From: an uncultured bacterium
GTDB lineage: Bacteria > Bacteroidota > Ignavibacteria > Kapaibacteriales > UBA2268
DNA length: 64,000 bases
Assembly: GCA_942492935.1 (NCBI GenBank)
Contig: OW818654.1
Location: forward strand, 1,515,219-1,579,218
Direction: 5' to 3'
Of the stretch, positions 21,474 through 58,200 are shown in pieces (the first letter of the stretch is position 1; every line of letters starts with the position of its first letter). The notes beneath the pieces were generated by a model that saw only the letters and a list, made by a program, of their open reading frames with translations, was not told the DNA's origin and made no database searches. Made by a program: the position numbers and the translations under genes.

Positions 21474-21557
21474 TTTAATAGTCTGTTGATAAAATAAAAA
21501 TTTAATCTTCTATCAAGTGGTTAAAGCACCTGAAAGATGATTAAATTTATACTTTAT
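21474..21557. other. Candidate attL of the integrated element (imperfect copy of the 62159-62254 sequence; 21-bp identical core at 21537-21557)
   Basis: tttaaTagtctgttg … gtggTtaaagcac … ATGATTAAATTTATACTTTAT is matched in the same order at 62159-62254. Confidence 0.55.
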
Positions 21558-39712: not shown

Positions 39713-39785
39713 AATCCCCCTGCCCCCTTTAATAAAGGGGGAAAAGAAAAATCCCCCTTAGAAAAAGGGGGAAGGGGGATTTTTC
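39713..39785. terminator. GC-rich three-hairpin element (copy B), probable bidirectional terminator
   Basis: ggaaatccccctgccccctttaataaagggggaaaagaaaaatcccccttagaaaaagggggaagggggattttt is near-identical to 35501-35573. Confidence 0.6.
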
Positions 39786-40437: not shown

Positions 40438-41061
40438 TTAATTATTAAAGATTGGAAATTCCATATCTTTTTTGATTTTTTTGTAAAGATAACGATTTTT
40501 GGTATGACAATCTGCAATACCATCTTCTGCGTGAATAACAACTTCAGCTAAATGCAGAACGTCATTTTCACCTTTAAAACTTTTTCCACCTTTCAATGAG
40601 AACAAAACACTTATAAAACTAATAGCTTGCTCTTTATAATCATTGTGAAGCATAAACAGATCCATTACAGTTTTTTGGTTAAACATAGCAATTTTTGAAA
40701 TACTGTCCATAATTACAAACTTATATTTGCCTGTATCAATCTGCTGTTTGATTGAATTTAATTCGCAATTATCCCAAAAATGAATTGTAGGACTGCTGAT
40801 TTTCAAAGCCCTTGCTTTACTTTGAATTGTACCACCTGCGAGGTTTTCCTCCGCATTTATGTACAAAACCCTGCCACTCCTTGAAAGCATATCAGCAAGT
40901 TTTAAAGCAAATGATGATTTACCTCCAAATGATGGACCAGTTAATAACATTGTCCATTGAACATTTGAAGGAATTTGACCTAAGAATTTGTTCCATTTTA
41001 ACGGCATATTCAGAGGTTTTACTTTGTAACCAATTGTATGAGATAATGGTGTTGCTTTCAT
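40438..41061 (-). CDS. RecA/KaiC/DnaB-C-terminal-like P-loop ATPase (207 aa)
   Basis: Walker A LLTGPSFGGKSSFALKL. Walker B …YKFVIMDSISKI (hhhhDS type, RecA-like rather than FtsK/HerA DE type). Confidence 0.55.
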   Translation of the reverse strand: MKATPLSHTIGYKVKPLNMPLKWNKFLGQIPSNVQWTMLLTGPSFGGKSSFALKLADMLSRSGRVLYINAEENLAGGTIQSKARALKISSPTIHFWDNCELNSIKQQIDTGKYKFVIMDSISKIAMFNQKTVMDLFMLHNDYKEQAISFISVLFSLKGGKSFKGENDVLHLAEVVIHAEDGIADCHTKNRYLYKKIKKDMEFPIFNN

Positions 41062-41669
41062 AAATATTTCTTATAAAGTGCATAAGCTGTTGTAATACCT
41101 ACAGTTGCTATTGTAGCACCTGCAATTCCCAATGTAACATCTTCAAACCCTGCCATAAACTCATACAAAAATCCCGGCAAGTTATATGAAATTTGTCCTT
41201 CATCGGCTCTACCTTGTATTTTGGGCATTTCTTCAGTGTGAATAAATTTATATCCAGACAATGAAGAATGACTTGCCCAAGTTACTGAATCATTATTATT
41301 TCCTTCAATACATTTAATAGTGCCGTTTCTGACTTCTACTACCAAACCAACGTGTCCGCCACCACTACGAGTACGAAAGAAAATTGATCCGGGCTTAGCT
41401 GTTGTATCAACACGCAAACCCTTTTTGCTTGCAGAATTAACCATCGTTACTGTAGATGCGGTTTTTGGTAGTAAATTTTTAATTCCAAAATCCTTTGCAG
41501 TCAAATCAGCTACCATCCAAACGAACTTTGCACACCAATGCTCATTAGTTTGCTTTCCGTTGAAATACTCTGTAATTTCATTCAAGCAAGGAGATGAACC
41601 CGCTAATTTCAATTCTTTACAGCCAAGCCACAATTCCGCTTTTTTAGTTAATCCTGTTGCAAAATTCAT
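41058..41669 (-). CDS. CHAP-domain peptidoglycan hydrolase with C-terminal TM anchor
   Basis: Cys context …HWCAKFVWMV…. His context …GGGHVGLVVEVRNGTIKCIEGNNNDSV. The C-terminus VTLGIAGATIATVGITTAYALY is hydrophobic. Confidence 0.55.
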   Translation of the reverse strand: MNFATGLTKKAELWLGCKELKLAGSSPCLNEITEYFNGKQTNEHWCAKFVWMVADLTAKDFGIKNLLPKTASTVTMVNSASKKGLRVDTTAKPGSIFFRTRSGGGHVGLVVEVRNGTIKCIEGNNNDSVTWASHSSLSGYKFIHTEEMPKIQGRADEGQISYNLPGFLYEFMAGFEDVTLGIAGATIATVGITTAYALYKKYL

Positions 41670-41866
41670 ATTAATTTTTTCAACCCAAATTTTTTGTAAT
41701 ATTTAGTTTTAAAAACTTTGTGAATACCAGCACTCAACAAACCAACAATTGCACCATTTCCAATTGACTTCGGGATAGAATTTTTTGCAATTAAATTAGA
41801 TGCCACCGCTGTAATTCCACCGCTTATAACTGGTGTTTGTACATATTCGCCAACTGATTTAGACAT
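41666..41866 (-). CDS. Small membrane protein
   Basis: 66 aa with one or two TM helices. Overlaps with neighbours indicate translational coupling. Confidence 0.4.
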   Translation of the reverse strand: MSKSVGEYVQTPVISGGITAVASNLIAKNSIPKSIGNGAIVGLLSAGIHKVFKTKYYKKFGLKKLI

Positions 41867-42404
41867 TTTGCCCTCCTAAATTGCACTTTAATCTATCAAT
41901 CATATTTGGTTGTAATACTTGAACTACTGTACCTGCCAATATGCTTGCACCAAAACCATAAAGAACAGATTTTCCTGTTGATTTTTTATATTTCTTACTT
42001 GCAACTATACCTGTACCTACGCCTGCAATCAGAGGAACTAAAGTTAATAATTTATCTTCAGTAGAATAATTACATTTGTTTTGGCTGTACGATGGACTTA
42101 ATGATATATTCGCCGCTTCCAATAATTGCACTTCGCTTGGAAGACCGTAATTGTGTTTAATTTTTAACCAAGACATTACACTTTGTCTGAAAATTATATC
42201 ACTTGTTAAAGCTGTTATAAGCTCTGATTGCGATAATTTTTTTTGATCAACGGCTGTCATTGCTACTAAAACATCTGTTCCTTTCACTCTTATATTTAAT
42301 TTATCAATTGTCCTGATAAATAAAGAAACGTCTGCTTTTTGAGGTACAATTTGTTCACTTGGTAATGTGTCCCAAACTGTTCCATCTTGTTTTGATTGGA
42401 TCAT
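41859..42404 (-). CDS. Membrane protein
   Basis: 181 aa. The C-terminal region has TM helices (…LTLVPLIAGVGTGIVASKKY… and …SVLYGFGASILAGTVVQVL…). Confidence 0.4.
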   Translation of the reverse strand: MIQSKQDGTVWDTLPSEQIVPQKADVSLFIRTIDKLNIRVKGTDVLVAMTAVDQKKLSQSELITALTSDIIFRQSVMSWLKIKHNYGLPSEVQLLEAANISLSPSYSQNKCNYSTEDKLLTLVPLIAGVGTGIVASKKYKKSTGKSVLYGFGASILAGTVVQVLQPNMIDRLKCNLGGQNV

Positions 42405-42766
42405 TTCTTTCTCCCTGCATAATAACCAATAATTCCACCCAAAATCATTGAACCACCGAACAATGCTAATAAAGTGGGTAAATAAATTCTAATTGCATCA
42501 TCTGTTACTTCTTTTCCAGCTGATGATAATACTCTGCTAATTGTATCATACTTACTGAAAACGGCTTCACCTGTGATTTTATACCAATCTTGAGCCGATA
42601 ACGTAGATAATTTTTCTTTCAATGTTTGAACTGCACTTTCACTCAACAACTGATTTTTGTTTTGAATGAATTTGGGCAATTGTATTTCTTTTTTCTGCTC
42701 TGTCATCTTGTAACCGCAATAATAGTGAATATCTGAACTGCTGTTCCCGCTGTCCACCATACCCAA
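42401..42766 (-). CDS. Membrane protein
   Basis: 121 aa with a C-terminal TM helix (…LPTLLALFGGSMILGGIIGYYAG…). Confidence 0.4.
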   Translation of the reverse strand: MGMVDSGNSSSDIHYYCGYKMTEQKKEIQLPKFIQNKNQLLSESAVQTLKEKLSTLSAQDWYKITGEAVFSKYDTISRVLSSAGKEVTDDAIRIYLPTLLALFGGSMILGGIIGYYAGRKK

Positions 42767-43323
42767 CCTTTTTCATACCACTTGTCCTCTTTAATTGTAG
42801 TGTCTTGATATGGAATATATTTGTGTAGCACTACTGAATCAATAGAAGAATTAATTCCCCATTCAAACCTATTTGATGGATATGAAAAACGTGAGAAAGC
42901 TGTATCGTGTTGAGTAAAACTTAATTCAACATTATCTGTTTTAATTACACTTTTTCTGTGTAGAATTGTATCCACATTTGATAGAAATGGAACAATTCGC
43001 TGTATGATTGTATCTCTCAAACTATCTTTCACAATTATAACTGTATCAAGAACTGTTTTATTATCGTAAATGATTTTTGTAGTACCAGTTACATAATATG
43101 GTTCTTTCACAATTACAATTCGAGTAGTATCGTAAATATAACCTTTTGTCTTTTCAATTACAACTGTTTCTGATTTATTGAAAAAAACAAGATATGCAAT
43201 TAAAGCAATTATAAAAGTTGCCATAATTACAATTATATAATTTTTAAAATCTGTCATCACCATTTCCCAATTGGACATTTTTGAGATTGAACTTTTGTTT
43301 TTAACTGTAAAAAACACCCGCAT
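42703..43323 (-). CDS. Membrane-anchored protein
   Basis: 206 aa with an N-terminal TM helix (…IIVIMATFIIALIAYLVFF…). Confidence 0.4.
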   Translation of the reverse strand: MRVFFTVKNKSSISKMSNWEMVMTDFKNYIIVIMATFIIALIAYLVFFNKSETVVIEKTKGYIYDTTRIVIVKEPYYVTGTTKIIYDNKTVLDTVIIVKDSLRDTIIQRIVPFLSNVDTILHRKSVIKTDNVELSFTQHDTAFSRFSYPSNRFEWGINSSIDSVVLHKYIPYQDTTIKEDKWYEKGWVWWTAGTAVQIFTIIAVTR

Positions 43324-43563: not shown

Positions 43564-46500
43564 TTAAGCACCAATTGACCACTTATTAACTGGTGCGGCT
43601 TCATTGTAAACGATATTGCAAGCATTAAGCAATGCAACTAATTCCACACAATTATAGCAACAACCACTCGCACCACTCGCACCATCTAAACCATTTTGTC
43701 CGCTGTAACCAGAAATTCCATCTGCACCATTTTGACCACTGTAACCTGATGCACCATTAATTCCACTAAACCAGCCACTATAACCTGAAATTCCACTCGC
43801 ACCATCTTGACCATTTTGACCGCTGTAACCTGAAAGACCATCTAAGCCATTTAGACCGCTGTAACCCGAAATTCCATTGCTTCCATTTTGACCACTGTAA
43901 CCTGAAATTCCGTTTGTACCATTTTGACCACTGTAACCTGAAATTCCACTTTGAGCTTGACCATTTGCACCCGAATAACCACTTAGTCCATCTGTACCAT
44001 TTTGACCACTTATTCCTGATTCGCCTTTTGCACCACTCGCACCTGACGCACCCGAAAAACCACTTTTTCCTGATGCTCCACTCCAGCCCGAATAACCACT
44101 GTAGCCACTAAGTCCTGATTTGTCCACCCACAATTTTAATGAAATATCGCCTGTGAATCCTGATATTCTTGTGTAGTCTTCAGTAGCTCCACTATATCCC
44201 GAAATTTGCCATTGTCCGTAAACTGTGAGAGGTTCTGCAACTGTACCCGAGAAGTCTTTGAAGTTTGCAGTTTGCCAATTCTTTTTACTGTCAATAATTG
44301 TATTGTTATGTCTCAATGTATTTGTTTGCATTGTATTTGGAATAATCGGATGCGAGAAATATGGTGTAATTAATGGATCTGTTGAATTACCAACTTTAAA
44401 TCCAGTAACTCCACCTGTTTGCTCAACTTTTACAACTAATCTGTGTCCGCTTTCCCAACTGAAACAACTTAAATCTGCTAAAAATGTATATATGCCACTA
44501 ACCGGTAATGTATCGGTAGAAATTTGACCTTTGTATGTTTCAGTACCATCTGCTTCTAAAGCATAGAATTTAAATGTTAAATATGCACTTCCTGATGAAG
44601 TAACATTCAAATTGAAAAACCATTTACCAAATGGGAAAATATCACCTGCTGGCTCAAAAGCATTTGCTAAGAATTTCAAATTTGTGAATGATGTGAAATT
44701 CACTTCTGCGTGAGATGGTTTACAACGTGAAATTACACGGAAACCTGCTTTGTCTGATGCGTCATTTGTGAAGAAAAATGTTTCATTTCCTGCACCGCCA
44801 TCACTACTTGCTCCACTATAACCACTATATCCCGATGCTCCCGCTGTACCTGTATCGCCTTTTGGTCCAGTTGCTCCACTTGTTCCAACTCCACTGTAAC
44901 CCGAAATCCCGTCTTGTCCTGAATAACCGCTGAATCCACTTCTTCCCGAAAATCCTGATGTTCCTTGTGTGCCTTGCTGTCCCGAATAACCACTAAATCC
45001 CGATGTTGATTGTCCCGAATAGCCACTAAATCCAGAAGTTCCAATTCCTGATTTACCACTCCAGCCCGAGAAACCACTTTTCCCTGACCAGCCCGAAAAT
45101 CCAGAAGTTCCAATTCCTGAATAACCTGATATACCACTTTCGCCTTGAATACCATTTTGACCACTGAAGCCCGAAGTTCCAATACCTGAATAACCACTAA
45201 AGCCCGATGTACCTACTCCAGAGAAACCGCTATAACCACTATATCCTGATGTTGAAGTTCCTGAATAACCACTAAAGCCCGATTCGCCCGGAATACCAAT
45301 ACCTGAACCATCTTGACCGCTGAAGCCCGAAAGCCCACTTTCGCCTTGAATACCTTGCTCACCTTTTTCGCCACTGTAACCACTAAAGCCCGATATTCCC
45401 GGTACGCCAATACCTGAACCATCAAGTCCACTATATCCACTATAGCCCGATGTTCCAATACCACTGTAACCCGAGAAACCGCTTATTCCTTGCGTTCCAA
45501 TTCCCGAAAATCCGCTGAACCCACTTGTTCCAATTCCCGAGAAACCACTTAGTCCTGATGTTCCAATTCCCGAATAGCCACTAAATCCTGATGTGCCTAC
45601 TCCCGAAAATCCACTTAGACCTTGCTCACCTTTTTGACCGCTGAAACCTGAAAAACCACTTATTCCCTGCGTTCCAATTCCCGAAAATCCACTAAGACCT
45701 GTATCGCCTTTTTGTCCACTGTACCCAGAAAAGCCCGAACTTCCAGCTCCACTAAACCCGCTATAGCCACTTGTTCCAATTCCTGAATAACCACTGAACC
45801 CACTTCTTCCCGAAAATCCTGATGTTCCAATTCCTGAATAGCCACTTTTGCCACTCCATCCACTGAAGCCCGAAGTTCCAATTCCCGAAAAACCACTTAT
45901 ACCTTGATCGCCTTTTTGTCCGCTGTAACCACTAAACCCGCTTGTTCCTATTCCCGAATAACCACTTTTGCCACTCCATCCACTGAAGCCCGAAGTTCCA
46001 ATTCCTGAATAACCACTAAAGCCCGATTCTCCCGGAATACCAATACCTGATCCATCTTGTCCTGAATAACCACTTTTGCCACTCCAACCACTGAAGCCCG
46101 AAGTTCCAATTCCGCTGTAACCCGAAAATCCACTTAATCCATCTTGACCACTGTAGCCCGATGTAGAAAGTCCTGAATAACCCGAGAAACCACTTGTTCC
46201 CGGAATACCAATACCTGAACCATCTTGTCCTGAATAACCACTTACGCCACTCCAACCACTGAAGCCCGAAGTTCCAATTCCAGAATAGCCACTGAATCCG
46301 CTTGTTCCAATTCCCGAATAACCACTGAACCCACTTGTTCCAATTCCCGAATAGCCACTGAATCCACTTGTTCCAATTCCTGAATAACCCGAAAATCCGC
46401 TTGTTCCTTCTGCACCATCTTGACCGCTGAAGCCCGAAATTCCACTTTCGCCATCTGTTCCATCTTGACCTGAATAACCTGATATTCCACTTTCGCCATC

Positions 46501-47475
46501 TATTCCATCTTGACCGCTGAAACCACTATAACCCGATGTAGAATTTCCCGAATAGCCACTAAATCCCGATGTTCCCGGAATACCAATTCCCGAACCATCT
46601 GCACCTGAATATCCCGAAAATCCACTTTCGCCTTGAATACCTTGATCGCCTTTCTCGCCACTGAAGCCCGAATAACCACTCAAACCTAAGCCCGAATAGC
46701 CACTGAAGCCCGAAGTTCCAACTCCACTGTAACCCGAAATTCCTCTCGAACCAACTGCACCCGAAAAACCGCTATATCCACTTGCACCATCTGAACCCGA
46801 ATAACCAACTCCCGAAAATCCACTTAGACCTTGCTCGCCTTTTTGTCCGCTGTAGCCACTAAATCCTGATGTTGCAATTCCCGAATAACCACTGAATCCA
46901 CTTGTTCCCGGAATACCAATACCTGAACCATCTGCACCCGAAAAGCCCGAATAACCACTGAAGCCACTTGGTCCATTTGCACCAATAATTCCATCTTGTC
47001 CCGAATAACCGCTGTAACCCGAAACTGAAATTCCCGAATAACCACTATACCCTGATGTAGAAACTCCACTGTAGCCCGAAAATCCACTTGTTCCCGGAAT
47101 ACCAATACCCGAACCATCTGCACCCGAATAACCGCTGTATCCACTTTCGCCAGAATAACCAACTCCCGAATAACCACTGTAGCCCGAAGTTGATAATCCA
47201 GAATATCCGCTGAAGCCACTTTCACCCGAAAATCCAAGTCCGCTGAAACCCGAAAAGCCCGATGTTCCCGGAATACCTACACCTGAACCATCAAGTCCAC
47301 TATATCCTGACATCCCAGAAAATCCTGAAAAACCACTGAACCCCGATCCTCCAGAATAGCCACTGAAACCGCTTTCTCCGTCATAACCACGTGGACCAAT
47401 TGGACCAACTGAACCACCGCCACCACCGCCGAAGCCGTTACCTTCTGTCCCAATTGGGATTGTTGAGCAACTCAT
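43564..47475 (-). CDS. Giant collagen-like repeat protein (1303 aa), candidate fibre/spike
   Basis: Hundreds of SG(F/Y/W)SG and G-X-Y units (…GFSGYSGIGTSGFSGYSGQKGEQG…, …GPKGDTGTAGASG…). A ~230-aa non-repetitive central domain lies around 44.1-44.8 kb. The C-terminal tail CCYNCVELVALLNACN is Cys-rich. Confidence 0.75.
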   Translation of the reverse strand: MSCSTIPIGTEGNGFGGGGGGSVGPIGPRGYDGESGFSGYSGGSGFSGFSGFSGMSGYSGLDGSGVGIPGTSGFSGFSGLGFSGESGFSGYSGLSTSGYSGYSGVGYSGESGYSGYSGADGSGIGIPGTSGFSGYSGVSTSGYSGYSGISVSGYSGYSGQDGIIGANGPSGFSGYSGFSGADGSGIGIPGTSGFSGYSGIATSGFSGYSGQKGEQGLSGFSGVGYSGSDGASGYSGFSGAVGSRGISGYSGVGTSGFSGYSGLGLSGYSGFSGEKGDQGIQGESGFSGYSGADGSGIGIPGTSGFSGYSGNSTSGYSGFSGQDGIDGESGISGYSGQDGTDGESGISGFSGQDGAEGTSGFSGYSGIGTSGFSGYSGIGTSGFSGYSGIGTSGFSGYSGIGTSGFSGWSGVSGYSGQDGSGIGIPGTSGFSGYSGLSTSGYSGQDGLSGFSGYSGIGTSGFSGWSGKSGYSGQDGSGIGIPGESGFSGYSGIGTSGFSGWSGKSGYSGIGTSGFSGYSGQKGDQGISGFSGIGTSGFSGWSGKSGYSGIGTSGFSGRSGFSGYSGIGTSGYSGFSGAGSSGFSGYSGQKGDTGLSGFSGIGTQGISGFSGFSGQKGEQGLSGFSGVGTSGFSGYSGIGTSGLSGFSGIGTSGFSGFSGIGTQGISGFSGYSGIGTSGYSGYSGLDGSGIGVPGISGFSGYSGEKGEQGIQGESGLSGFSGQDGSGIGIPGESGFSGYSGTSTSGYSGYSGFSGVGTSGFSGYSGIGTSGFSGQNGIQGESGISGYSGIGTSGFSGWSGKSGFSGWSGKSGIGTSGFSGYSGQSTSGFSGYSGQQGTQGTSGFSGRSGFSGYSGQDGISGYSGVGTSGATGPKGDTGTAGASGYSGYSGASSDGGAGNETFFFTNDASDKAGFRVISRCKPSHAEVNFTSFTNLKFLANAFEPAGDIFPFGKWFFNLNVTSSGSAYLTFKFYALEADGTETYKGQISTDTLPVSGIYTFLADLSCFSWESGHRLVVKVEQTGGVTGFKVGNSTDPLITPYFSHPIIPNTMQTNTLRHNNTIIDSKKNWQTANFKDFSGTVAEPLTVYGQWQISGYSGATEDYTRISGFTGDISLKLWVDKSGLSGYSGYSGWSGASGKSGFSGASGASGAKGESGISGQNGTDGLSGYSGANGQAQSGISGYSGQNGTNGISGYSGQNGSNGISGYSGLNGLDGLSGYSGQNGQDGASGISGYSGWFSGINGASGYSGQNGADGISGYSGQNGLDGASGASGCCYNCVELVALLNACNIVYNEAAPVNKWSIGA

Positions 47476-47478
47476 AAT

Positions 47479-47748
47479 TTACCTTCCCTTTTCAATATCA
47501 ATTATTCTTTTTTCGTGATCCGTAACGATAGTTGTTAATTTTATCACAGATTCAGTAAAACTTTTGTGGTCGTGCTTGTTATCGTTGAACTGCAATACAA
47601 ACTTATTATTTGCATTTAAAATTCCTTCTAACAAGGTTACAATTTTATTAAAGCCTGCTATTGTTATTTTCCATAATATTACAGCTAAAATAATAAGCCC
47701 AATTATCAATGCGGGCTTTGATATTTGTTGTAATAAATTATCTTCCAT
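47479..47748 (-). CDS. Small membrane protein
   Basis: 89 aa with the TM helix ALIIGLIILAVILWKITIAGF. Confidence 0.4.
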   Translation of the reverse strand: MEDNLLQQISKPALIIGLIILAVILWKITIAGFNKIVTLLEGILNANNKFVLQFNDNKHDHKSFTESVIKLTTIVTDHEKRIIDIEKGR

Positions 47749-47823
47749 TTCTTTATTCCTGTTTTAAAAGCCCGCTTTCACGAGCTTATTATAATTTATG
47801 TTTTTATCAAATTGTAATCTGTA

Positions 47824-48150
47824 TCAACAATCTACCCATCCAGTAAATATATCATTTTTCAAAGCCGTATAAGCTGCATTGAACATAGCTTGTTTTGTAG
47901 ATTCTAAACCGTTTGGCAAAACAGCCAACGCATCGTTAATGTGTCCATAGCCGTTATACTGTCCTTGTTTGTATTTTTCGTACTCACTTAATCCTGCATC
48001 ATATCTTTGCCTTTGGTCTGCATTTGCAAAAATCAAAAAAGTTATATGATGATTACCCTTTGCAAAATCATATTGCATAGAGGTTATTTTTAAATATTCG
48101 CCTGTTGTTGCGTTTTGAATAGCCATTATAATCTTGTCTCCGTTGCCCAA
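47824..48150 (-). CDS. Hypothetical protein
   Basis: 108-aa ORF between the two collagen-like genes. Confidence 0.4.
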   Translation of the reverse strand: MGNGDKIIMAIQNATTGEYLKITSMQYDFAKGNHHITFLIFANADQRQRYDAGLSEYEKYKQGQYNGYGHINDALAVLPNGLESTKQAMFNAAYTALKNDIFTGWVDC

Positions 48151-49523
48151 ATATTTAATGAAAATCTTACTGAATTTGCACTATCGTGCTTCACTTCAAT
48201 CTTTAATGATTCGTTTGTATCGTCAGCTGTAACTTGACAATCCCAATTTGTAGTTCCACTATCAGCACCAACTACGGTTTTTGTTACAGAACCGACTAAT
48301 GATGTGTTATTACTTGCATCTCTTTTAATAGCACCAATTAACTCCCAAGTTTTCACACTAAAATCAGTTGCGTCAATAGCATTTAATTGTATTCTGAATT
48401 GATAAACTGAACTTGCAATTATTGTTAATCTTGCACTTGTAGCATCAACGAATAATTCTTGCCAAGCTGCCGAATTAGTAGTTAAATCTTTACTTGCATA
48501 TTTTTGCACAGCCAAATAAGACTTCCCATTAGCAATATAATCACCATTAATAGCCAATTCATTCGCTCTTTCGTTTACAGAATACGCTCCAAAAGCTATA
48601 GCACCTGGTCCAACTCCATTATAATTTGCTGATTTGCCTATAGCTACATCTCCACTGTTTGTGCCAGTATTTGCACCTATAGACACACCTTCGTTATATC
48701 CGTACGCACTTTTTCCAATAGCTACTCCATAGTTAAAAGATTTTGCACTGCCCCCAATCAACACTGACTCTTTATTTGCAAATACCCAATCTGTCCCATC
48801 ATAATAATATGTGCGTATTGCACCAGACCCCAAAGTATCAACTGCATTTCCTACACTTTTATAAACATACAATGCACTATTGGAATCAGCGTTATTATTC
48901 ATCACCGTAATTTTGTACCCTGCGGTGATACCTGTCGTTGGCAAATAAACATACTTGTCTGAGGTATTGTTCGGATTTAATATCTGTATTGTCGGACTAC
49001 TCGAAGTTAGTGTCTTATCAGCAGACAATGTTTCAATATTTACAGATTCACCGCCATTATTGCCACTATATCCACTGATTCCTGATGTTCCTATTCCACT
49101 ATATCCACTAAATCCCGATGTTCCTATTCCACTATAACCACTGAAGCCCGAAGTTCCTACTCCAGAATAACCTGAAATACCACTATCGCCTTGAATACCT
49201 TGTTCGCCATTTTGACCACTATATCCACTAACATTTGCACCACTATATCCACTAAATCCTGATATGCCCGGAATACCAATACCTGAACCATCTGCACCAG
49301 AATAACCTGATGTTCCACTTTCGCCTTGAATACCTTGTTCGCCTTTTTGACCACTGTAACCACTAAAGCCAGATGTTCCTACTCCCGAATAACCACTTAT
49401 TCCACTTACCCCGAAGCCCGAAAATCCAGAAAAACCAGATCCGCCACTAAATCCACTGAATCCACTCCAGCCCGAAAAACCCGATGTATCAGCCATTTGT
49501 CCTCCTAAATCCAACAAGCCCAC
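48126..49523 (-). CDS. Collagen-like repeat protein 2 (465 aa), paralogous N-terminal GYSG-repeat shaft plus a C-terminal globular domain
   Basis: The N-terminal ~190 aa carry the same SGFSGYSG/GxxGxQG repeats as the 1303-aa protein. The ~270-aa C-terminal domain is non-repetitive. Confidence 0.7.
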   Translation of the reverse strand: MGLLDLGGQMADTSGFSGWSGFSGFSGGSGFSGFSGFGVSGISGYSGVGTSGFSGYSGQKGEQGIQGESGTSGYSGADGSGIGIPGISGFSGYSGANVSGYSGQNGEQGIQGDSGISGYSGVGTSGFSGYSGIGTSGFSGYSGIGTSGISGYSGNNGGESVNIETLSADKTLTSSSPTIQILNPNNTSDKYVYLPTTGITAGYKITVMNNNADSNSALYVYKSVGNAVDTLGSGAIRTYYYDGTDWVFANKESVLIGGSAKSFNYGVAIGKSAYGYNEGVSIGANTGTNSGDVAIGKSANYNGVGPGAIAFGAYSVNERANELAINGDYIANGKSYLAVQKYASKDLTTNSAAWQELFVDATSARLTIIASSVYQFRIQLNAIDATDFSVKTWELIGAIKRDASNNTSLVGSVTKTVVGADSGTTNWDCQVTADDTNESLKIEVKHDSANSVRFSLNIWATETRL

Positions 49524-50082
49524 GAATCCGCAAGCTCAATAATGGATGATAAATATTTCTCTGTCTTACAAATACTCCGTTGCCGTTGCTTTGTGAACCA
49601 GCTTTTCCGTTTGATGTATTAAATGCAATTGTTTGAACCCATCCAGCTTTTCCAACTTTGATAACTCTTTCGATATGTCCATTGTAGCTTTTTGGATTAA
49701 TCCAAGTAATTAAATCGTGAATATTTGCTATGTAATTTGTTCTGTAATTGAATTTCTTCGCATAATTAAACGCAGAATTTGCCATTCCAGATTTTGGAAT
49801 AGGAATAGAATTTCTGTTTAATTTTAATTGATTTATAGCTTGTAAAAATGCCCAATATTGACCTGCATAACAGTACGGATTACCTTTTTTTAATCCTACT
49901 GAATGTAAGTATTTTTCAACTTCACCATCATTTTTATTCGTTTTTTCTGTAATTCCAATTTGAGAAATAGCAAAATCCTCTGAAATTTCAAGAATTTCAA
50001 AGTTACTAATTGGAATTTCATAACGAATTTGTGAAAATAAGTTGGCAGTAAGCAATAATATGAAAAATAATGACTTTTTCAT
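49489..50082 (-). CDS. Secreted CHAP-like cell-wall hydrolase candidate
   Basis: Signal peptide MKKSLFFILLLTANLFSQ. Cys context …KKGNPYCYAGQYWAF…. His context …NGHIERVIKVGKAGWVQTIAFNT…. Confidence 0.4.
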   Translation of the reverse strand: MKKSLFFILLLTANLFSQIRYEIPISNFEILEISEDFAISQIGITEKTNKNDGEVEKYLHSVGLKKGNPYCYAGQYWAFLQAINQLKLNRNSIPIPKSGMANSAFNYAKKFNYRTNYIANIHDLITWINPKSYNGHIERVIKVGKAGWVQTIAFNTSNGKAGSQSNGNGVFVRQRNIYHPLLSLRIRGLVGFRRTNG

Positions 50083-50728: not shown

Positions 50729-51510
50729 TAGAAAACCTCATTCTGATTTGTAGAATATTGCGGAGGAGCTTGTGGAATTTGTTGCGTTTGTGGTTGTGGT
50801 GCTGGTTGCCCCACATTCCAATCACGCATTTTCTTTTCTGCAAATGCTCCAAGTATTTGACCACCTAATGACAATATTCCTGCAACTGCGGGATGTGCTA
50901 AACCACTCGAAAGAGCATCAGCAAGAGCTTCACCGTCCTGTTGCTTGTCAATTACTGACTGAAATCTTGCTTTGAAATCTTCAAATTCTTTATTTCTAAG
51001 TTCCAATTCCTTGAGTATAGCTTCTTTTTCACTTTGTAATTTTATAATTTGTCTATCAGAATCCAAAATATGATCCCGAAGTTCAGTTTCTGTTTTTTCA
51101 AGATTGTAAATTCTTTTTTCTTTAATTGATAATTGTTCTTTTATTGTCTTATTATGTTCAATATTAGCTTTGTTGTCGCTGTAATTGTATGCGGAAGGTA
51201 CGAAAGAACTACCATTATCAGCTAAGCCCTCTGGCTTAGGATTGAACGGCATCGGCATACCTTCACCAATATATTTCCTGTCCCCATTTTCAATTTGGGA
51301 AACAGTAATTTTGTCCCTTGCAGAATATTTGCAGGGATTTTTTTCCAAGAACTCCTCGAAATCCGAAACATTAAATCTATCCAATAATTGTTGTCCGCTG
51401 TAGCTATAATTCATAGGATTATTGGTATATTCCACATTATGATTATTGGTACAGTTTAATTTTCTTTTACCAAATGAATAGGTTTTTTCTGGATTAAATG
51501 TAAGTGGCAT
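50728..51510 (-). CDS. Coiled-coil protein with a Q/P-rich C-terminus
   Basis: …KEQLSIKEKRIYNLEKTETELRDHILDSDRQIIKLQSEKEAILKELELRNKEFEDFKARFQSV… is a coiled coil. The tail PAPQPQTQQIPQAPPQ is Q/P-rich. Confidence 0.45.
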   Translation of the reverse strand: MPLTFNPEKTYSFGKRKLNCTNNHNVEYTNNPMNYSYSGQQLLDRFNVSDFEEFLEKNPCKYSARDKITVSQIENGDRKYIGEGMPMPFNPKPEGLADNGSSFVPSAYNYSDNKANIEHNKTIKEQLSIKEKRIYNLEKTETELRDHILDSDRQIIKLQSEKEAILKELELRNKEFEDFKARFQSVIDKQQDGEALADALSSGLAHPAVAGILSLGGQILGAFAEKKMRDWNVGQPAPQPQTQQIPQAPPQYSTNQNEVF

Positions 51511-52196
51511 TAGTAAAACTCCTTATAAGTCGCTGTAGAACTATCAAAATTTAATTTTGATGATGTTTTTTCATTGGATGCAAGATTACCACCGGGAACA
51601 AAACCAAGTGAAGCAAATACTTTGTCTTTATATTTTGCACCTTCTTTTTTGTTACCACCGGGAAAACTGCCTTGATTATAAGCTGTAACTGCTTTAGTCA
51701 TATCGTTTTTGTAACGTTTAGTCTGATAAGCAAGTTCGTAAACTGACAACATAATTGCATAATCGGGATCGTTCAAAATACGGTCCTGATTTTCTGCAAC
51801 TGTTGATGTTGGATAGACTTTTGAACAACTAAACATAGCTGGAGCAAATTCTACCTTGAGTCTTTTCTTTTCATTTTCACGTTGAGTACAAATTAGCATC
51901 TGCATAATTCCACGTGCTGTGCTTTTTTTATTACGAGCCGTAGTATTATAGCTTGATTCTACATTTGCAATAGCTACAACGTGAGAAGCAATTGTTTCTG
52001 GTTTAATTCCATACGTGCCTGCAATGTTTTTTGCGTGCTTTAATGCAATGGAATATACTGTATTTTTATCCATTTTTGGCATTGACTGTACCTGTTCCTG
52101 TCCAAAAAGTAACGACACAAATAATTGGGTATCTCTGAAGATGATTATAAGCATCACGTAAATCAATTCTTTGCCATACTGCTCCGTGTGCTTCAA
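51510..52196 (-). CDS. Lytic transglycosylase (SLT domain); the start is probably internal, near 52073-52082
   Basis: …IANVESSYNTTARNKKSTARGIMQ… carries the catalytic E-S and the A-x-G-x-MQ motif. …TAYNQG is also present. The protein ends in …TYKEFY. Confidence 0.7.
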   Translation of the reverse strand: MKHTEQYGKELIYVMLIIIFRDTQLFVSLLFGQEQVQSMPKMDKNTVYSIALKHAKNIAGTYGIKPETIASHVVAIANVESSYNTTARNKKSTARGIMQMLICTQRENEKKRLKVEFAPAMFSCSKVYPTSTVAENQDRILNDPDYAIMLSVYELAYQTKRYKNDMTKAVTAYNQGSFPGGNKKEGAKYKDKVFASLGFVPGGNLASNEKTSSKLNFDSSTATYKEFY

Positions 52197-52866
52197 CAGT
52201 ATTCACTTTGCCAAGTTCTCTGTCCAAATTAACACAAAATGGTAATGGTAAACCAATTGACATATCGCCTTCATTGCCTTTATTCCCATAATTTGAACTT
52301 GTCATTCCTTTTAGAATAAATTGGTCATTGATAATTATTTGCGGTCTAAATCCGTTAGGTTGCCAATTTACAGATAATAAACCGTTTTTATAAACAGACT
52401 GTGCATAAGTTTTTGAGTACAATGGCGGTGGAGTTTGCTCTTCACCGGGTCCGATTTGTTGCGGAAAACTTTCATCTGCTGATGTAGGAATCCTACTTGC
52501 TTTAATTACATTCCAAAGGTCTTCATTTTGATATGTAGAACCTTCATACATTGAATCATAAGCGTAAAATTCTGCTTTTTCAATATACACTTTCTGTGCT
52601 TTGAAAATTTCACTCAAGTCTGTTAGAGGTCGTAAATAAGTTGAATAAGGATTATTACCTGCGTGATTATTTTTTCTTGTGGGAATTGAATCACTGTCCT
52701 GTCCGCATTTATTAAACTCGTTAATATAACCTAATGGATTACTTGTAATAAAATAATCTTTGTCATCATCAGTAACAACAATATTATTTTCTGTACTTGA
52801 CGCAAATATAGCAACTACCGTCTCTGGATAGAACCTTCTTATTTCACTATTTAATCCACAATCCAT
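52066..52866 (-). CDS. Hypothetical structural-module protein
   Basis: 266-aa ORF. Confidence 0.4.
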   Translation of the reverse strand: MDCGLNSEIRRFYPETVVAIFASSTENNIVVTDDDKDYFITSNPLGYINEFNKCGQDSDSIPTRKNNHAGNNPYSTYLRPLTDLSEIFKAQKVYIEKAEFYAYDSMYEGSTYQNEDLWNVIKASRIPTSADESFPQQIGPGEEQTPPPLYSKTYAQSVYKNGLLSVNWQPNGFRPQIIINDQFILKGMTSSNYGNKGNEGDMSIGLPLPFCVNLDRELGKVNTVEAHGAVWQRIDLRDAYNHLQRYPIICVVTFWTGTGTVNAKNG

Positions 52867-52867
52867 A

Positions 52868-53329
52868 TTATTGTATTCCTAATAATCTATATCCAATGAA
52901 TGAAATATAAACATTGTAAGGTGCAGTACCTACGGCTGATGTTGGTTTTCCATCGCCTGTAACTTCTACATTAATTTTAGTTCTTGCTGGGAATATCCAA
53001 CCTTTAAATCTAATTGAATGAACAAGATTTTTTAAATTTTCTAAATTAATTGGTTTATTAAAATAGCTTTCACCATCTTCATTTTTCAATTGCATTAGGA
53101 AATTTTGTGCTTGTTCTCTGTCTTGCAATTTATAACCACTTGCATCAGTAATATGAATTTGCAAATCTTCTACCCAAAAATCATCACTACCAATTAATAA
53201 ATCTTCACTTTGATTATCAGTAACAGTTGCTAAATCCAATCGCATATTATAAGCAAATGGGTCGTTATAATTCACTCTTGAAGCTAATTCGTTAGCTTGA
53301 ATTACTCGCCTTGCTGTTCTATTTGACAT
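52868..53329 (-). CDS. Hypothetical structural-module protein
   Basis: 153-aa ORF. A terminator lies between it and the upstream gene. Confidence 0.4.
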   Translation of the reverse strand: MSNRTARRVIQANELASRVNYNDPFAYNMRLDLATVTDNQSEDLLIGSDDFWVEDLQIHITDASGYKLQDREQAQNFLMQLKNEDGESYFNKPINLENLKNLVHSIRFKGWIFPARTKINVEVTGDGKPTSAVGTAPYNVYISFIGYRLLGIQ

Positions 53330-53356
53330 TTTAATTTCCTATTTAATTAATTATTT

Positions 53357-53405
53357 AAAAAAGTAGTGAGAGCTGGGAGTATCCTATAATCGTCAGCTCT
53401 CACTT
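53357..53405 (-). terminator. Strong rho-independent terminator on the minus strand, immediately after 53437-54072
   Basis: AGTGAGAGCTG…CAGCTCTCACT has an 11-bp stem and is followed on the minus strand by a T6 run. Confidence 0.7.
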
Positions 53406-53436
53406 GCCACACCGGAGGAGTTCCGGTAAATTTTCC

Positions 53437-54072
53437 TTAGCCGTTTACTTTAGATTTAACGCCTTTAAATTCTACCATAATATAATTGCCTTGATCAGCT
53501 GTTGAAAGAGCTGAACCTGCTTTTTTAATATATGGTGAAAGAGTAGCACTATAAGCGGCTGTAGATACTTCTTTAGCTGGAACGATTTTAACATCTGGTC
53601 TGCCACCTGCTGGCACGATAACGGGCTTAGCAAGTTTGAAAATATTGTTAAATTTATCTCTAATTCCGTAGAAAGAAGCTGTACCATTTTGATTGTCTGC
53701 CTGACGAATTTCAAAATTCACCAATTCATACAATGGAATCTTAACAACATCATCACCTTCATTTGAAATATGAAGTACAGAGTTGTTTAAGAAATATTTC
53801 AATTTAGCATTGTTCAACAATGGATCAGTATTACTAAATAAAATACCAAAATCAATGCGTAAATGAGTTAATGCAAATGCTTGAGTGTTTGATGGGAAAA
53901 CCTTACTTTTCCACATTTCATCTTTTGCATCGTTACCAAAGAAATCCATATCAACTAATGCTGTAGATGGATTAATAAACACTGTATCTCTTATCCATAC
54001 TTCATCGTTCTGGAATTGAGCGCCGTTTGAGCTACCAACGGCTTGCAAAGTTTGTTTTGCTTGAAATGACAT
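53437..54072 (-). CDS. Candidate major structural (capsid-like) protein, 211 aa
   Basis: Predicted beta-rich protein. A dedicated strong terminator follows it, which is typical of abundantly expressed structural genes. It is adjacent to a second protein of similar size. Confidence 0.35.
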   Translation of the reverse strand: MSFQAKQTLQAVGSSNGAQFQNDEVWIRDTVFINPSTALVDMDFFGNDAKDEMWKSKVFPSNTQAFALTHLRIDFGILFSNTDPLLNNAKLKYFLNNSVLHISNEGDDVVKIPLYELVNFEIRQADNQNGTASFYGIRDKFNNIFKLAKPVIVPAGGRPDVKIVPAKEVSTAAYSATLSPYIKKAGSALSTADQGNYIMVEFKGVKSKVNG

Positions 54073-54126: not shown

Positions 54127-54789
54127 TTACAGAGTTATATTTCCATAAGCTACACCATTAGCAAATTCTTCCCAATCGTCATTCAAGGATGCGGCATTGA
54201 ATCCTGCGAGATTGAAAGGATTATTTGAGTAATCAGCGAGTGGATTTGGACCATAACGAACATTCGCACTTGCAACATTAGCTGGTTCAAGCTGTAAAGG
54301 CATTGAATCATTTACAGTTTCACCACTTGGACCCGATGACACTAATATTTTAGTTCCATCTGGTCGAGTAACATATTCCATACCCGCAGGTGCAGGCATA
54401 TCATCTTGTACACCTACCGCAGGCAATGAAGCACTCACTTGAATAGAGTTCTTTGTTGCTGGTGGAATAGGTGAATTAAAAATCTTTGCTATGTATGGAT
54501 TTCCATAAACATATAACAATTTAGTACCTTTTGTAATCAAAGTACCAAGAGCAATGTAAGGTTTATCGAAGCCCAAGCCAATAGCTGTTACAATTGAACC
54601 CGAAGCAAAGTTTCCTAATGCTCCTGACATATCAATTCTGTAATTTCCATCTTCTTTACGTCCTCCCAAGCCCTGAATCATTGCGGGCAATACTTCACCT
54701 GCAACTGCACCAAGAGCCGTATAACCTGCTTTAGACCAAAATTCCTTTTGCCCTAAATAGCGACCAATCAGTTTAAAGTCAAATTTCAT
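54127..54789 (-). CDS. Candidate structural protein, 220 aa, Gly-rich N-terminal region
   Basis: Located immediately upstream of the 211-aa candidate. Confidence 0.35.
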   Translation of the reverse strand: MKFDFKLIGRYLGQKEFWSKAGYTALGAVAGEVLPAMIQGLGGRKEDGNYRIDMSGALGNFASGSIVTAIGLGFDKPYIALGTLITKGTKLLYVYGNPYIAKIFNSPIPPATKNSIQVSASLPAVGVQDDMPAPAGMEYVTRPDGTKILVSSGPSGETVNDSMPLQLEPANVASANVRYGPNPLADYSNNPFNLAGFNAASLNDDWEEFANGVAYGNITL

Positions 54790-54800
54790 TCTTCTTATCC

Positions 54801-55253
54801 TTATAATAGTTTTTTAACTGCATAGTGAGACGCAAAGCCTGTTCCTGTACCAACAAGCAAAGATGTTATCCACCCTGTTTTAAATCCATATTTAGCAATA
54901 GCTGTTGCACCTGCACCGAGAGCAACTGAAGTAATCATTTTCATATCATCGGGCATAGAAAGGGATGAAAACTTTGCCACTTGTGGTGCTGGTTCACCTG
55001 TAACCGGCGGGTAGTCCGGTGTTGGTAAATTATTAACCGGTACTGCTTCCTGCGGTCCATATACTTGCGGTGCATTATTCGGATTGGCTGGAGATTTTAT
55101 TCCAATTTGATCCTGAACCCATTTATCACCTTCATTTATGATACCACCAGCGATGTTGTTCCCGGCTTTTTCTATTCCACTCCAAATGTTATCGAAGAAA
55201 TTTTCCTCATCTTGCAAGGAAAATACTTCTGGAGTATTAGAAAATCTGTTCAT
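54801..55253 (-). CDS. Membrane protein (C-terminal TM helices), proline-rich centre
   Basis: …MITSVALGAGATAIAKYGF…WITSLLVGTGTGFASHYAV is hydrophobic. Confidence 0.4.
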   Translation of the reverse strand: MNRFSNTPEVFSLQDEENFFDNIWSGIEKAGNNIAGGIINEGDKWVQDQIGIKSPANPNNAPQVYGPQEAVPVNNLPTPDYPPVTGEPAPQVAKFSSLSMPDDMKMITSVALGAGATAIAKYGFKTGWITSLLVGTGTGFASHYAVKKLL

Positions 55254-55269
55254 TTTTAAACCTCATAAA

Positions 55270-58200
55270 TTAACAATCATTACAATCACAATCATCTGAA
55301 TTGCAGTCGCAATCACAATTTTTTCTTTTTCTATTTTCAGTAACCGGTGCATATTCAAATACAGTTTTTTTGTATTCTTCAACCATTGCCGGAATTTTCT
55401 TTTTATCACAATCAGTACATTCACCACTAATATTACTTTGTGGCATATATGGATCTACACTTGGTATATTTGGAGTAACTTGTGGAGCATAAGGAGTAAC
55501 ATCTGGTACATAAGGAGTTCCTTGTGGTACGTAAGGTGGTATAACATCTGCTGGTACGTAAGGAGTAACTTGCGGAACATAAGGTTCTACAGTAGGTACA
55601 TAAGGAGTAACTTGCGGAACATAAGGCTCTACATTTGGTACATACGGAGTTACTTGCGGAACATAAGGTTCTACAGTTGGTACATACGGAGTTACTTGCG
55701 GAACATAAGGTTCTACAGTAGGTACATAAGGAGTAACTTGCGGAACGTAAGGTTCTACAGTTGGTACATAAGGAGTAAAACCACTTTGAGCTACAAAACC
55801 GCTATTACTTTCTTTAATTATAATTACACAATTTGCAGTATCTACCTCGTAAGCTGTACCATTAATCACCACAAAATACTTGCTTGTACCTCCAACTTGT
55901 CTATATGCTTTAATTCGTGTAGTTGGCTGTTCATCATTCAATGTTACTTTGAATGGTGGCAATGTTGGCATTGCTCTGTTTTGTGTATCTGTCGGACTTG
56001 GCATTAACACATCTTGCGGAGGAGTGATGAACAAATTAGTATTTGGATTTGCTGGAGATTTAATTTCCGGCATAACTCTATTTGTATTGTCCGCAGGAAT
56101 AATATTAACAGTTGGAAATACGCTTGTAACGGGATTATTTACTGGACTTTGCATAATTTCATTGCCTACTGATTGAGTAAACAATGGATTAGTTGGAATA
56201 ATCGGCATTGTTGTTAAAGTTGCTTTCGCTGACTTTGGAACAAACCAATATTGACCATCAATAATTTCAATACAAGGAGGTAAATTATAATCTACACTAC
56301 CTGAATAGCCACTAAATCCACTTTGTACCAAATAACCGCTGTTACTTTTTACATCAAAATTATTAACATCCTTACTTGAATATCCTGATACATTTGTATT
56401 AGTGTTTGTATTAGTATTTGTATTTGTATTAGTATTTGTATTAGTATTTGTATTGGTGTTTGTATTAGTATTTGTATTGGTATTTGTATTGGTATTTGTA
56501 TTAACATCTTTATCAATACGAATATCTTTATTTACAGTAACCGTTGTATTTTCACTAACACAAGACCGTTTCATTGCATCATAAGTATATCCCGGAGGAC
56601 AGTAAATGATTTTCTTCTTAACTTCTTTTTCTAATTCAATTTTAAAACATTCTGCTTCTTCTGGACAGATATTTGGAGGAAGAATAAATATATCAGTTGA
56701 AGTACCTAAAGCATTTGCTTGACTTTTTAATGAATCATATAAAAATGGTTTAAATATTGAATTATTTGGAATATGCCCGAATACACTTTGAATTAATCCT
56801 GCGTGAATTTCTGCGTTACTACTGCCATCTTTCCATCCTAAATTTGTATCGTAAGCATTTTTATTCCCAAGTATAGCAATTGCAAATTTATCTATACTCG
56901 GCATCATTGGTAATATAGTTTGATTTGAGCCAGCAATAAATAAATCTCTTACAATTGGAATATCAGTAATAAATTGTTGGTCTGCAATTGCACTTACAAG
57001 AGTTTGAGAATCTAAACTTCTACCTATTTTATTAATCATTTGCATAGTTTTAGTATTTTCAACTAATTTCTGCACATATTTAAAACTTTTAGAATCAGTA
57101 TATTGTGATAAATCAATATTAATGGCATTACCAATATTGCTATAAGCATTTCTTATAGCTAATCCTAATTCTTCATTTATACCTAATTTCTCAAATTCTA
57201 CTACTGAACCTTTCCATATTTTATCTAATGCCACTTGTGCATCTTGAAGTATTGGACCAAATGTTGTTTTCAATGATTTACCAACACCATCAGCCCAAGT
57301 CATAATCCCACCTTTAATATTTTCTGGAATTATATAATCTGCTGTTTGAGCAAGTGTTGTAATTGCACTAAAGGCGTTTATTTCACCACCATTAGCATAA
57401 TTTTGTAAGTTTTGAGATATTCCTTTTAAAATAGCAGGGTCAAACGCATTAGCTAACCCGGGTATTCCGGGTAATATACTTGCTACAGTTGAAATAACAG
57501 TTGCTAACTCCCTTTTCCACTTGTCGCCATCTTGCTTGTTAATAACCCAAACGAAATTAAATGGTATTTTCTTTTTAAACTGATAGCCCATTGTAAATAG
57601 TTCTACTTGTTTAATCATACCCGGCAAATTTCCTCTTTGGCTCATAATCATATCTTTTAATGCTTGAGCTTTTCCTTTCTCCCAACCAATTGATACTGCT
57701 TTCATATATGGATTTCTTGTATTTCTATCATCCATAGACAATGCAAATGAACCTGAAGAGCTAAATGCTTCGTAACCACCAATACGGTCAGCCATTCTTT
57801 CTGCCCAACCGTTACCAGTACTGCTATCCCAATTTAATTCTACTAAACAAAAATCTGGACCAATTAAACCACTTTCTACTAAATATTTAGTTTGTGCATT
57901 TGGCTGTGATAATATGAAATGTAAATTTCCATAATTATCTTTAAATATTCCAAATCCCGTATGTGTTTCTGATGGTCTTTGGCTATTGAAAACAGCACCA
58001 CGAGGATCACCACCTGCATAACTATTGCTTGCTTTTGTTATATCAGCTAATACTCTTTTATTTTTTAATTGTGAATAATGCAATAAATTACCAGTAGATG
58101 GTACTTTAATTGTATATTCTTTACAATTCGGAATAGGCGGACAAGGTATTGGCTCTTTCGCTGGTGGAGGTGGAGGAGGAGTTTCAACTACATCAGTTGT

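Follow-up and report, generated by a model that had tools for sequence, protein, structure and literature searches.

Collagen-like stalks are found in several microbial and viral surface fibres. The exosporium filaments of Bacillus are built of BclA, in which O-glycosylated collagen-like GXT repeats are combined with a C1q/TNF-like knob, and giant viruses possess glycosylated collagen-like fibres. Among phages, the collagen-like side-tail proteins EPclA and EPclB of Escherichia coli O157:H7 prophages were shown to be trimers with a collagen helix and are regarded as tail fibres (Ghosh et al. 2012, PMC3368898); an earlier report on bacteriophage collagen (Smith et al. 1998) is cited in PMC1079782. 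The 64,000-nt stretch analysed here (hereafter the window), from an uncultured bacterium of the Kapaibacteriales (GenBank assembly GCA_942492935.1, contig OW818654.1, positions 1,515,219 to 1,579,218), encodes two proteins with such stalks, denoted A and B, which are likely to be virion fibres of a ~40-kb integrated phage-like element, produced late together with lysis and structural genes. Like EPclA and EPclB, these proteins are prophage-encoded and combine a G-X-Y stalk with globular trimerisation or binding domains. Unlike them, A and B contain Gly-aromatic-Ser triplets with almost no proline, their stalks are longer (up to 875 residues) and very frequently broken by G-X-G, and the PfN, coiled-coil and PfC domains are missing; moreover, A has a globular insert inside the collagen. 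From BclA and the giant-virus fibres, A and B differ in having aromatic-Ser rather than Pro-Thr triplets and in belonging to a phage rather than a spore context, and their putative glycosylation is suggested by gene linkage only. The two genes and their parts are as follows.

43564-47475, minus strand: gene A, collagen-like fibre protein of 1303 aa (from the list of open reading frames, ORFs, and Pfam Collagen)
44812-47436, minus strand: A residues 14-888, long interrupted collagen-like stalk defined by glycine spacing, ~250 nm if triple-helical
44116-44811, minus strand: A residues 889-1120, embedded all-beta globular insert
43663-44115, minus strand: A residues 1121-1271, second, nearly uninterrupted collagen-like segment of 47 triplets, ~43 nm
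43567-43662, minus strand: A residues 1272-1303, Cys-rich tail that immediately follows the last triplet and opens with GCCYNC, recognised from its sequence
48126-49523, minus strand: gene B, collagen-stalked fibre, ORF of 465 aa with a probable ATG at 49496
49053-49481, minus strand: B residues 15-157, collagen-like stalk of 143 residues, ~41 nm if triple-helical
48129-49052, minus strand: B residues 158-465, fibre head: beta-sandwich (N-terminal), left-handed beta-roll of YadA type, jelly-roll knob (C-terminal)

Both ORFs, with 1303 and 465 codons, are intact on the minus strand, at the coordinates given in the first-pass annotation of this DNA, which had been made without database searches. 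Both proteins match the Pfam Collagen family (PF01391) above its gathering score (E-values of 7.5e-76 for A and 1.7e-8 for B). B probably starts internally, at the ATG at position 49496 (codon 10 of the listed ORF), which would yield a protein of 456 aa. The local GC content at A and B is 43%, compared to ~30% over the window, which fits the load of Gly and Ser codons, and a stop-free frame of 3.9 kb in DNA with ~30% GC indicates that gene A is not a chance ORF. An assembly artefact or pseudo-ORF was considered and rejected given that the frame of A is intact and the repeats are diverged, with the longest exact repeat of only 44 bp. The repeat DNA had also been said to explain many spurious antisense ORFs; among the additional ORFs of at least 50 aa inside gene A, however, 10 are shifted frames on the same strand and only 5 are antisense.

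Glycine spacing and the Pfam match bear out the initial description of near-continuous G-X-Y and SG(F/Y/W)SG triplets that include GPKGDTG and are interrupted by IGTS. Protein A consists of 13 N-terminal residues, 875 residues of interrupted collagen, the insert of 232 residues, 151 residues of collagen and a Cys-rich tail of 32 residues. In its long stalk, the distance between successive glycines is 3 in 246 cases, 2 (a G-X-G break) in 45 and 5 (a G4G break) in 8; in the second segment, it is 3 in 47 of 49 cases and 5 in one; and in the stalk of B, the respective counts are 40, 8 and 1. Altogether, the triplets number 296 in A and 41 in B, with 135 and 19 G[FYW]SG motifs, respectively. Position X in A is dominated by aromatic residues (Tyr 69, Phe 62 and Trp 7, that is, 138 aromatic triplets), position Y is Ser in 220 triplets, and Pro occupies only 12 of all X and Y positions. 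The IGTS inserts, in the form G-I-G-T-S-G, are G-X-G breaks that produce an 11-residue unit, IGTSGFSGYSG (33-nt period); a second repeat unit in A spans 17 residues (51 nt), and super-repeat markers of the form DGSGIG(I/V)PG occur seven times in A and once (DGSGIGIPG) in B.

Several features of these segments argue for a collagen triple helix. All 8 Lys residues at position Y of A are followed by G-Glu or G-Asp (KGE or KGD), and the same is true of 8 of the 10 Lys and Arg residues at Y combined (binomial P = 1.6e-8, with counts that are partly dependent because units are duplicated). The KGE/KGD pair is the classical interchain salt bridge of collagen, a motif that makes sense only in a triple helix. 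The Gly-aromatic-Ser triplets are mixed with canonical charged triplets in the same phase, the stalks are joined in register to domains of trimeric type, and G-X-G and G4G are the commonest break types of non-fibrillar animal collagens. From this sequence pattern, we infer that the stalks of A and B trimerise and form triple helices. Each protein would then be a homotrimer in which the G-(Tyr/Phe/Trp)-Ser repeat folds into a long, flexible stalk with kinks at the frequent G-X-G and G4G breaks. Three points weigh against a triple helix, namely that proline is almost absent from the stalks, that aromatic residues rank among the most destabilising at X in host-guest collagen peptides, and that the long stalk of A is broken approximately every 17 residues, so that the stability of the helix is not assured. 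The same scarcity of proline, the 138 aromatic residues at X and the 45 breaks in the long stalk are what would be expected if the Gly-aromatic-Ser regions were FUS-like low-complexity sequences with [G/S]Y[G/S] stickers, disordered or cross-beta, that surround the particle or the lysing cell with an adhesive layer or gel; SGYSG also conforms to the [G/S]Y[G/S] motif seen in phase-separating domains, and the literature search found no experimental study of the repeat (no paper containing GYSGYSG, or describing the repeat or its linkage to glycosyltransferases, was found in the library searched). Such stickers are hard to reconcile with glycine at every third residue for hundreds of residues, with breaks limited to the types seen in non-fibrillar collagens, with charged triplets that keep the same phase and Lys at Y that is always followed by G-E or G-D, and with the in-register junction to domains that act as trimers. 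We consider this interpretation quite improbable and retain the triple helix as the predicted state of both stalks.

The two proteins had been called paralogous, which applies to their stalks and not to their globular parts. Residues 13-154 of B align with residues 228-388 of A at 68% amino acid identity, with non-trivial triplets in the same order, and the stalks in general share 68-70% amino acid and 69-72% nucleotide identity, indicative of common ancestry. No relationship was detected between the globular parts of A and B, and their homology is accordingly rejected. Within the repeats, DNA self-identity is 62-72% over long stretches, and the Ser codons of the motif are drawn from both families (73 AGY and 62 TCN), which are two substitutions apart. 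Thus, the repeat appears to be old and maintained by selection on the protein, and this divergence makes assembly collapse or very recent expansion unlikely. The earlier suggestion that highly self-similar DNA favours recombinational length variation is therefore not supported. A related strain in which copy numbers of the repeat could be compared was not found in searches of phage genomes, IMG/VR and metagenomes.

The identification of B as a fibre is supported by its head. The 308 non-collagen residues have 84 homologues, most of which have other N-terminal modules in place of a collagen stalk; the 29 best matches show 41-51% identity over 91-100% of the head, including the C-terminal ADDTNE-L motif. 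The alignment of this family contains conserved columns, and 188 relatives of the head are present in IMG/VR. A scan of genome contigs identifies the closest named relatives in metagenome-assembled genomes (MAGs) of Kapabacteria and Ignavibacteria; a tblastn search of the head against 50,697 phage genomes gave no match. The family profile is similar to the YadA head (PDB 1p9h, E = 2.9e-13) and to other adhesin heads. Structure prediction for the non-repeat domains, which the first-pass annotation had put forward as a check, is confident for the B head and of low confidence for the insert of A. The AlphaFold2 model of the B head is all-beta (pLDDT 90), and a Foldseek comparison with viral models retrieves proteins of uncultured Caudovirales, whose annotations in some cases name collagen repeats, YadA heads or Mtd domains; one match is a tail fibre of a Ralstonia phage. 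Matches of B to PHROG families fall mostly within residues 14-227, that is, chiefly in the stalk, and a weak match to phrog_819 (E = 0.0029) extends to residue 428.

The genes next to B, listed below together with two related loci, are conserved beside B homologues.

49489-50082, minus strand: CHAP-like protein of 197 aa with a hydrophobic N-terminus, directly upstream of B (Pfam, PHROG)
47824-48150, minus strand: small ORF of ~100-108 aa, directly downstream of B, with no family match
L003, 5481-12850 (MAG labelled Kapaibacterium): compact cluster with a B-type fibre gene
L005, 5483-12847 (MAG labelled Hyphomicrobiales): compact cluster with a B-type fibre gene

Homologues of the 197-aa CHAP-like protein are encoded upstream of B-type genes in three loci (L001, L003 and L005; 38-47% identity), and the small ORF shares 51% identity with the next gene after the B homologue in L001 and L002, which makes it a candidate fibre assembly protein, chaperone or accessory protein. 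In L001, a contig of 53 kb, the B homologue is located behind genes for a Mu-type portal, a MuF-like protein and an HK97-type capsid. The loci L003 and L005 contain a compact, nearly identical cluster of a capsid-E-like gene, Mu gp36, CHAP, a B-type fibre and a Mu portal, which may represent a minimal or domesticated phage-derived particle; in L003, this cluster lies between host dnaB and dnaJ. Taken together, the homologues, the synteny and the fold matches indicate that B is a phage fibre in which a collagen-like stalk bears a presumably trimeric head.

The presence of a YadA-like head in B and the similarity, below the family cut-offs, to the collagen-like adhesins SclB, Lcl and SclA in NCBIfam could also suggest that A and B are host surface adhesins acquired by lysogenic conversion, of the streptococcal Scl or trimeric autotransporter type, rather than parts of a virion. 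This possibility appears highly improbable. Neither an LPXTG signal nor an autotransporter barrel nor a C-terminal domain of the type IX secretion system (T9SS) is matched in these proteins; no T9SS sorting domain or membrane-anchor domain is detected in A or B with Pfam, and inspection of the translations reveals no apparent signal peptide at either N-terminus, B opening directly with triplets. These features fit assembly in the cytoplasm. In contrast, secreted proteins of the host encoded in the same window do carry T9SS domains. Furthermore, the genes of A and B are inside a late operon, and homologues of B belong to the structural modules of phage contigs. Compared to trimeric autotransporter heads (1p9h, 2xqh, 3s6l), B shares the YadA-like head repeats but has no coiled-coil stalk, membrane-anchor barrel or apparent signal peptide; instead, a collagen stalk supports the head, which ends in the model in a C-terminal jelly-roll knob. 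The B head is a use of the YadA fold in a phage fibre, as in many proteins of uncultured Caudovirales, and B, with its trimeric head at the end, would be the likelier receptor-binding fibre of the two.

Protein A is more difficult to place through its globular part. The first ~145 residues of the insert are modelled as a beta-sandwich that resembles galactose-binding domains or carbohydrate-binding modules (CBMs). This model is open to doubt given that its mean pLDDT is 62, with values below 50 for much of residues 146-209, and that it was built on an alignment of 7 sequences of weak relatives (hhalign probability of 18%). A word-indexed search with the insert retrieved nothing, so that it is a sequence orphan; two weak matches to Ig-like domains from an exhaustive search of 1.8 billion representatives involve repetitive proteins and were judged spurious. 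The tail of A is possibly a disulfide knot or registration element, by analogy with the C-terminus of collagen III, which carries a cystine knot. A search with the full-length protein identifies 430 collagen-like proteins, dozens of which share the Gly-aromatic-Ser composition and the G-X-G breaks; many proteins of this A-like set are fused to domains typical of fibres (Peptidase_S74, Mtd_N, Collar or Laminin_G_3), and several have globular inserts inside the collagen. For example, P0092 is encoded after the tail genes of a siphophage-like contig, P0094 in a contig with an SPP1-type portal, and P0091 in a large phage-like contig with cyanophage-like genes. Matches to PHROG tail-fibre families (6320, 5073, 1806 and others) are confined to collagen segments (residues 1093-1273 and 824-897), and the best Pfam and PHROG stretches fall in the second segment. 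A scan of IMG/VR with the C-terminal 415 aa of A gave no match, and a metagenome scan with the C-terminal part detected one locus that matches over the collagen only. Exact look-ups in the protein collection did not find A or B with the limits used here. By composition and architecture, A thus groups with a large metagenomic set of Gly-aromatic-Ser collagens. It would form a filament of ~300 nm with an embedded CBM-like beta-sandwich and a Cys-rich C-terminal clasp, and probably makes the first, reversible contact with a surface polysaccharide.

The preliminary view of the two proteins as candidate spikes or fibres is thus strengthened by the homologues, synteny and folds of the B head, by the presence of A-like proteins in phage contigs and by the location of both genes in a late operon. 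The first 21 kb of the window is chromosomal, with a gene content that suggests a low-GC member of the Bacteroidota-Ignavibacteriota-Kapabacteria group, and is followed by the phage-like part.

22235-23344, minus strand: tyrosine integrase at the left end of the element

A plus-strand block of the element encodes a DnaD-like initiator, a methyltransferase and two glycosyltransferases. The late block is transcribed on the minus strand from ~61.4 to 39.8 kb (39785-61440) and ends at a strong terminator-like hairpin (39752-39772); apart from A and B, it encodes three CHAP proteins, an SLT transglycosylase, a transglutaminase-like cysteine protease and many small proteins with hydrophobic stretches. 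An exact direct repeat of 21 bp, ATGATTAAATTTATACTTTAT, is present at 21537-21557 and 62263-62283, flanking the integrase and the late operon, and may correspond to attL and attR of an element of ~40.7 kb; no tRNA gene is found in the window, and promoter-like sites are not above chance. Thus, the integrase, the replication genes, the lysin-bearing late operon and the flanking repeat identify A and B as late genes of an integrated phage-like element of ~40 kb. A conjugative element was considered and rejected given that the ORF list has no VirB4, VirD4 or relaxase-sized gene. A megablast search of the 40-64 kb part of the window against the 50,697 phage genomes produced no match.

Two observations speak against the placement of A and B on a virion. 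No capsid, portal, terminase, tape-measure, tail-tube or other tail gene is recognised in the element with Pfam, PHROGs or NCBIfam. In addition, an N-terminal virion-attachment domain is not recognisable in A or B, where 13 and 3-14 residues, respectively, precede the first triplet; the presence in the virion and the end by which each fibre would be anchored are inferred. The lack of these genes (including any of the HK97 type) can also be read to mean that A and B are not tail fibres but vertex spikes of a tailless, membrane-containing icosahedral virus with a PRD1-, Bam35- or P23-77-like plan, which would alter their attachment and not their identity. Compatible with such a plan are the abundance of small hydrophobic-stretch proteins (at 54127-55253 and 41859-43323) next to the SLT transglycosylase in the late operon, a cluster of three small beta-rich proteins without a family match (266, 153 and 211 aa; 52066-54072), and a small P-loop ATPase. 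Yet no jelly-roll capsid protein is demonstrated, and the 207-aa ATPase seems closer to RadA/Sak4 than to a packaging enzyme; PDB sequence searches with this ATPase and with the 211-aa protein led to no capsid, portal or terminase assignment. The 211-aa protein, a capsid candidate, is a singleton cluster in a collection of 15 billion proteins, and an IMG/VR scan with it gave nothing. Moreover, the relatives of B and the A-like proteins occur in contigs of tailed phages, and ~40 kb exceeds the size of known members of those virus families. The vertex spike P5 of PRD1 has no detectable sequence relation to A or B, the latter have no penton-binding N-terminal domain, and capsid or packaging genes of PRD1 type are not recognised in the element. 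We regard vertex spikes as unlikely, and virion fibres of a phage-like particle, which may be tailless or otherwise unclassified, remain the preferred reading.

Two glycosyltransferases of the plus-strand block provide a further connection to the A-type collagen.

32247-33392, plus strand: GT2-like glycosyltransferase (Pfam; 33% identity to the L027 homologue)
33941-34414, plus strand: GT9-like, half-size glycosyltransferase, partner of the GT2-like enzyme (Pfam; 42% identity to the L027 homologue)

In the window, the two genes are separated by two small ORFs. A tblastn search of the element proteins against the retrieved loci showed that homologues of both are encoded directly downstream of the A-like fibre P0092 in an unrelated phage contig (L027). 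Scans of IMG/VR with each glycosyltransferase as a single protein returned nothing; a scan with a two-sequence alignment detected 344 relatives of the GT2-like enzyme. The linkage was analysed for the best 80 of these 344 loci (L031-L110), where an ORF with at least 10 G[FYW]SG motifs was counted as collagen-positive (a looser threshold of at least 20 GxxG also caught poly-Gly fibre proteins). A GT9-like partner adjoins the GT2-like gene in 76 of the 80, mostly at a distance of 0-20 bp, and 44 of the 80 contain 52 Gly-aromatic-Ser ORFs, all co-oriented with the pair and mostly 0.03-5 kb upstream of it. Of the 6517 triplets in these 52 ORFs, 5710 have Ser at Y, and the residues at X are Tyr, Ile or Phe. 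Methyltransferases, sometimes fused to an extra GT2 domain, or additional glycosyltransferases often precede the pair. Of the 33 loci that are 12 kb or longer, 29 are collagen-positive, compared to none of 51 control fibre loci (Fisher p = 1.4e-18), and when the GT2-like proteins are dereplicated at 70% identity, 11 of the 12 clusters with a long locus are still positive. As for the controls, none of 26 loci around B homologues from genomes and metagenomes is positive, and neither such collagen nor the glycosyltransferase pair is present in 80 IMG/VR loci (1.15 Mb) that surround B-type fibre genes, 51 of which are the long control loci counted above. Of the heptosyltransferase profile, the GT9-like protein covers the C-terminal half only (positions 117-218 of 247), and the C-terminal part of the GT2-like protein contains a conserved G-x-GD motif, which we take to resemble the N-terminal half of GT9 enzymes; hence, the second enzyme may be split across two genes.

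This type-specific linkage suggests a dedicated glycosylation of the fibre, the simplest explanation being that the serines of the Gly-aromatic-Ser repeat are substrates of the pair; a Ser at nearly every third residue would then be O-glycosylated by the GT2-like and GT9-like enzymes of the element. More broadly, we tentatively propose, as somewhat short of an even chance, that Gly-(Tyr/Phe/Ile)-Ser fibres are a distinct, widespread class of phage fibres whose serines are O-glycosylated by a co-inherited GT2-like and split GT9-like pair, often along with methyltransferases, that the glycan rather than proline stabilises the helix and mediates or masks contact with the host, and that in the present case such fibres are borne by a particle whose capsid genes match no known family. 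Such a modification would be comparable to that of BclA filaments and giant-virus fibres. A phage precedent exists in mycobacteriophages, where phage-encoded glycosyltransferases modify the phage's own virion proteins, according to work cited in PMC10955285 and PMC11256854; as presented there, the targets are capsid and tail-tube subunits of actinophages, whereas here a GT2-like and half-GT9-like pair is proposed to act on a collagen-like fibre.

The case for fibre glycosylation is one of genomic association only, and it is weakened by the position of the pair in the window, ~10 kb from A, on the opposite strand and among early genes, as well as by the lack of the pair in the flanks read for P0091 and P0094. 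Furthermore, glycosyltransferases near tail-fibre genes in pelagimyophages have been interpreted as O-antigen modifiers (PMC7029224). By the same token, the pair could modify host lipopolysaccharide (LPS) or another surface glycan, as in superinfection exclusion, or the phage DNA, and its proximity to collagen would only reflect the clustering of host-range genes; its location among early genes, beside a DNA methyltransferase gene, is in line with this reading. This is possible and on balance doubtful, inasmuch as the linkage is confined to one type of fibre and absent from the B-type loci, the genes in viral loci are co-oriented and usually within a few kilobases of each other, and the association survives dereplication. 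Modification of the fibre itself thus seems better compatible with the distribution of the pair.

Collagen-like phage fibres being already known, the two genes alone would be a modest find; what appears to be new is a large class of Gly-aromatic-Ser fibres with a linked glycosyltransferase pair, and an element with virion genes that match nothing known. If confirmed, a nearly proline-free collagen rich in aromatic residues and serine, abundant in uncultured phages, would challenge the rules of triple-helix stability and might be useful as a biomaterial scaffold. It would also provide a testable case of phage-encoded glycosylation of a host-recognition fibre, and glycosyltransferases whose routine annotation is modification of LPS or DNA would have to be reassigned. 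The carrier element, in turn, may be a type of virion missed by current profiles.

The only other protein of the window with the stalk motif is the largest of the CHAP proteins.

55270-59004, minus strand: CHAP-domain protein of 1244 aa with two short SG(F/Y)SG patches (58201-58257 and 56290-56337)

In the six-frame translation of the window, SG[FYW]SG occurs 155 times: 151 times in A and B, 4 times in this protein (residues 255, 264, 895 and 898) and nowhere else. The recurrence that had been noticed in the first inspection, and from which a putative co-assembly with A and B had been proposed, is real and non-random, with ~0.004 occurrences expected from shuffling. The patches are 2-3 triplets long and located in linker regions. 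Candidate roles of the protein are those of a tail lysin, an internal protein or a scaffold. It also contains a run of 19 Asn-Thr dipeptides (6-nt repeat, 56392-56502), a 14-aa Pro-Tyr-Val-Pro unit in approximately eight copies (42-nt repeat, 55447-55778), and a C-terminus rich in Cys and Asp (CDCDCNSDDCDCNDC). The late block carries an unusually heavy load of genes for cell-wall-active proteins, all on the minus strand: the three CHAP proteins (41058-41669, 49489-50082 and 55270-59004), the SLT transglycosylase (51510-52196) and the transglutaminase-like protease (59816-60319). In the chromosomal flank (1-21000), five ORFs match T9SS sorting domains, three of them above the Pfam gathering score, and the same region contains ATP-citrate-lyase-like genes, an IS110 transposase and a NorB nitric-oxide reductase.

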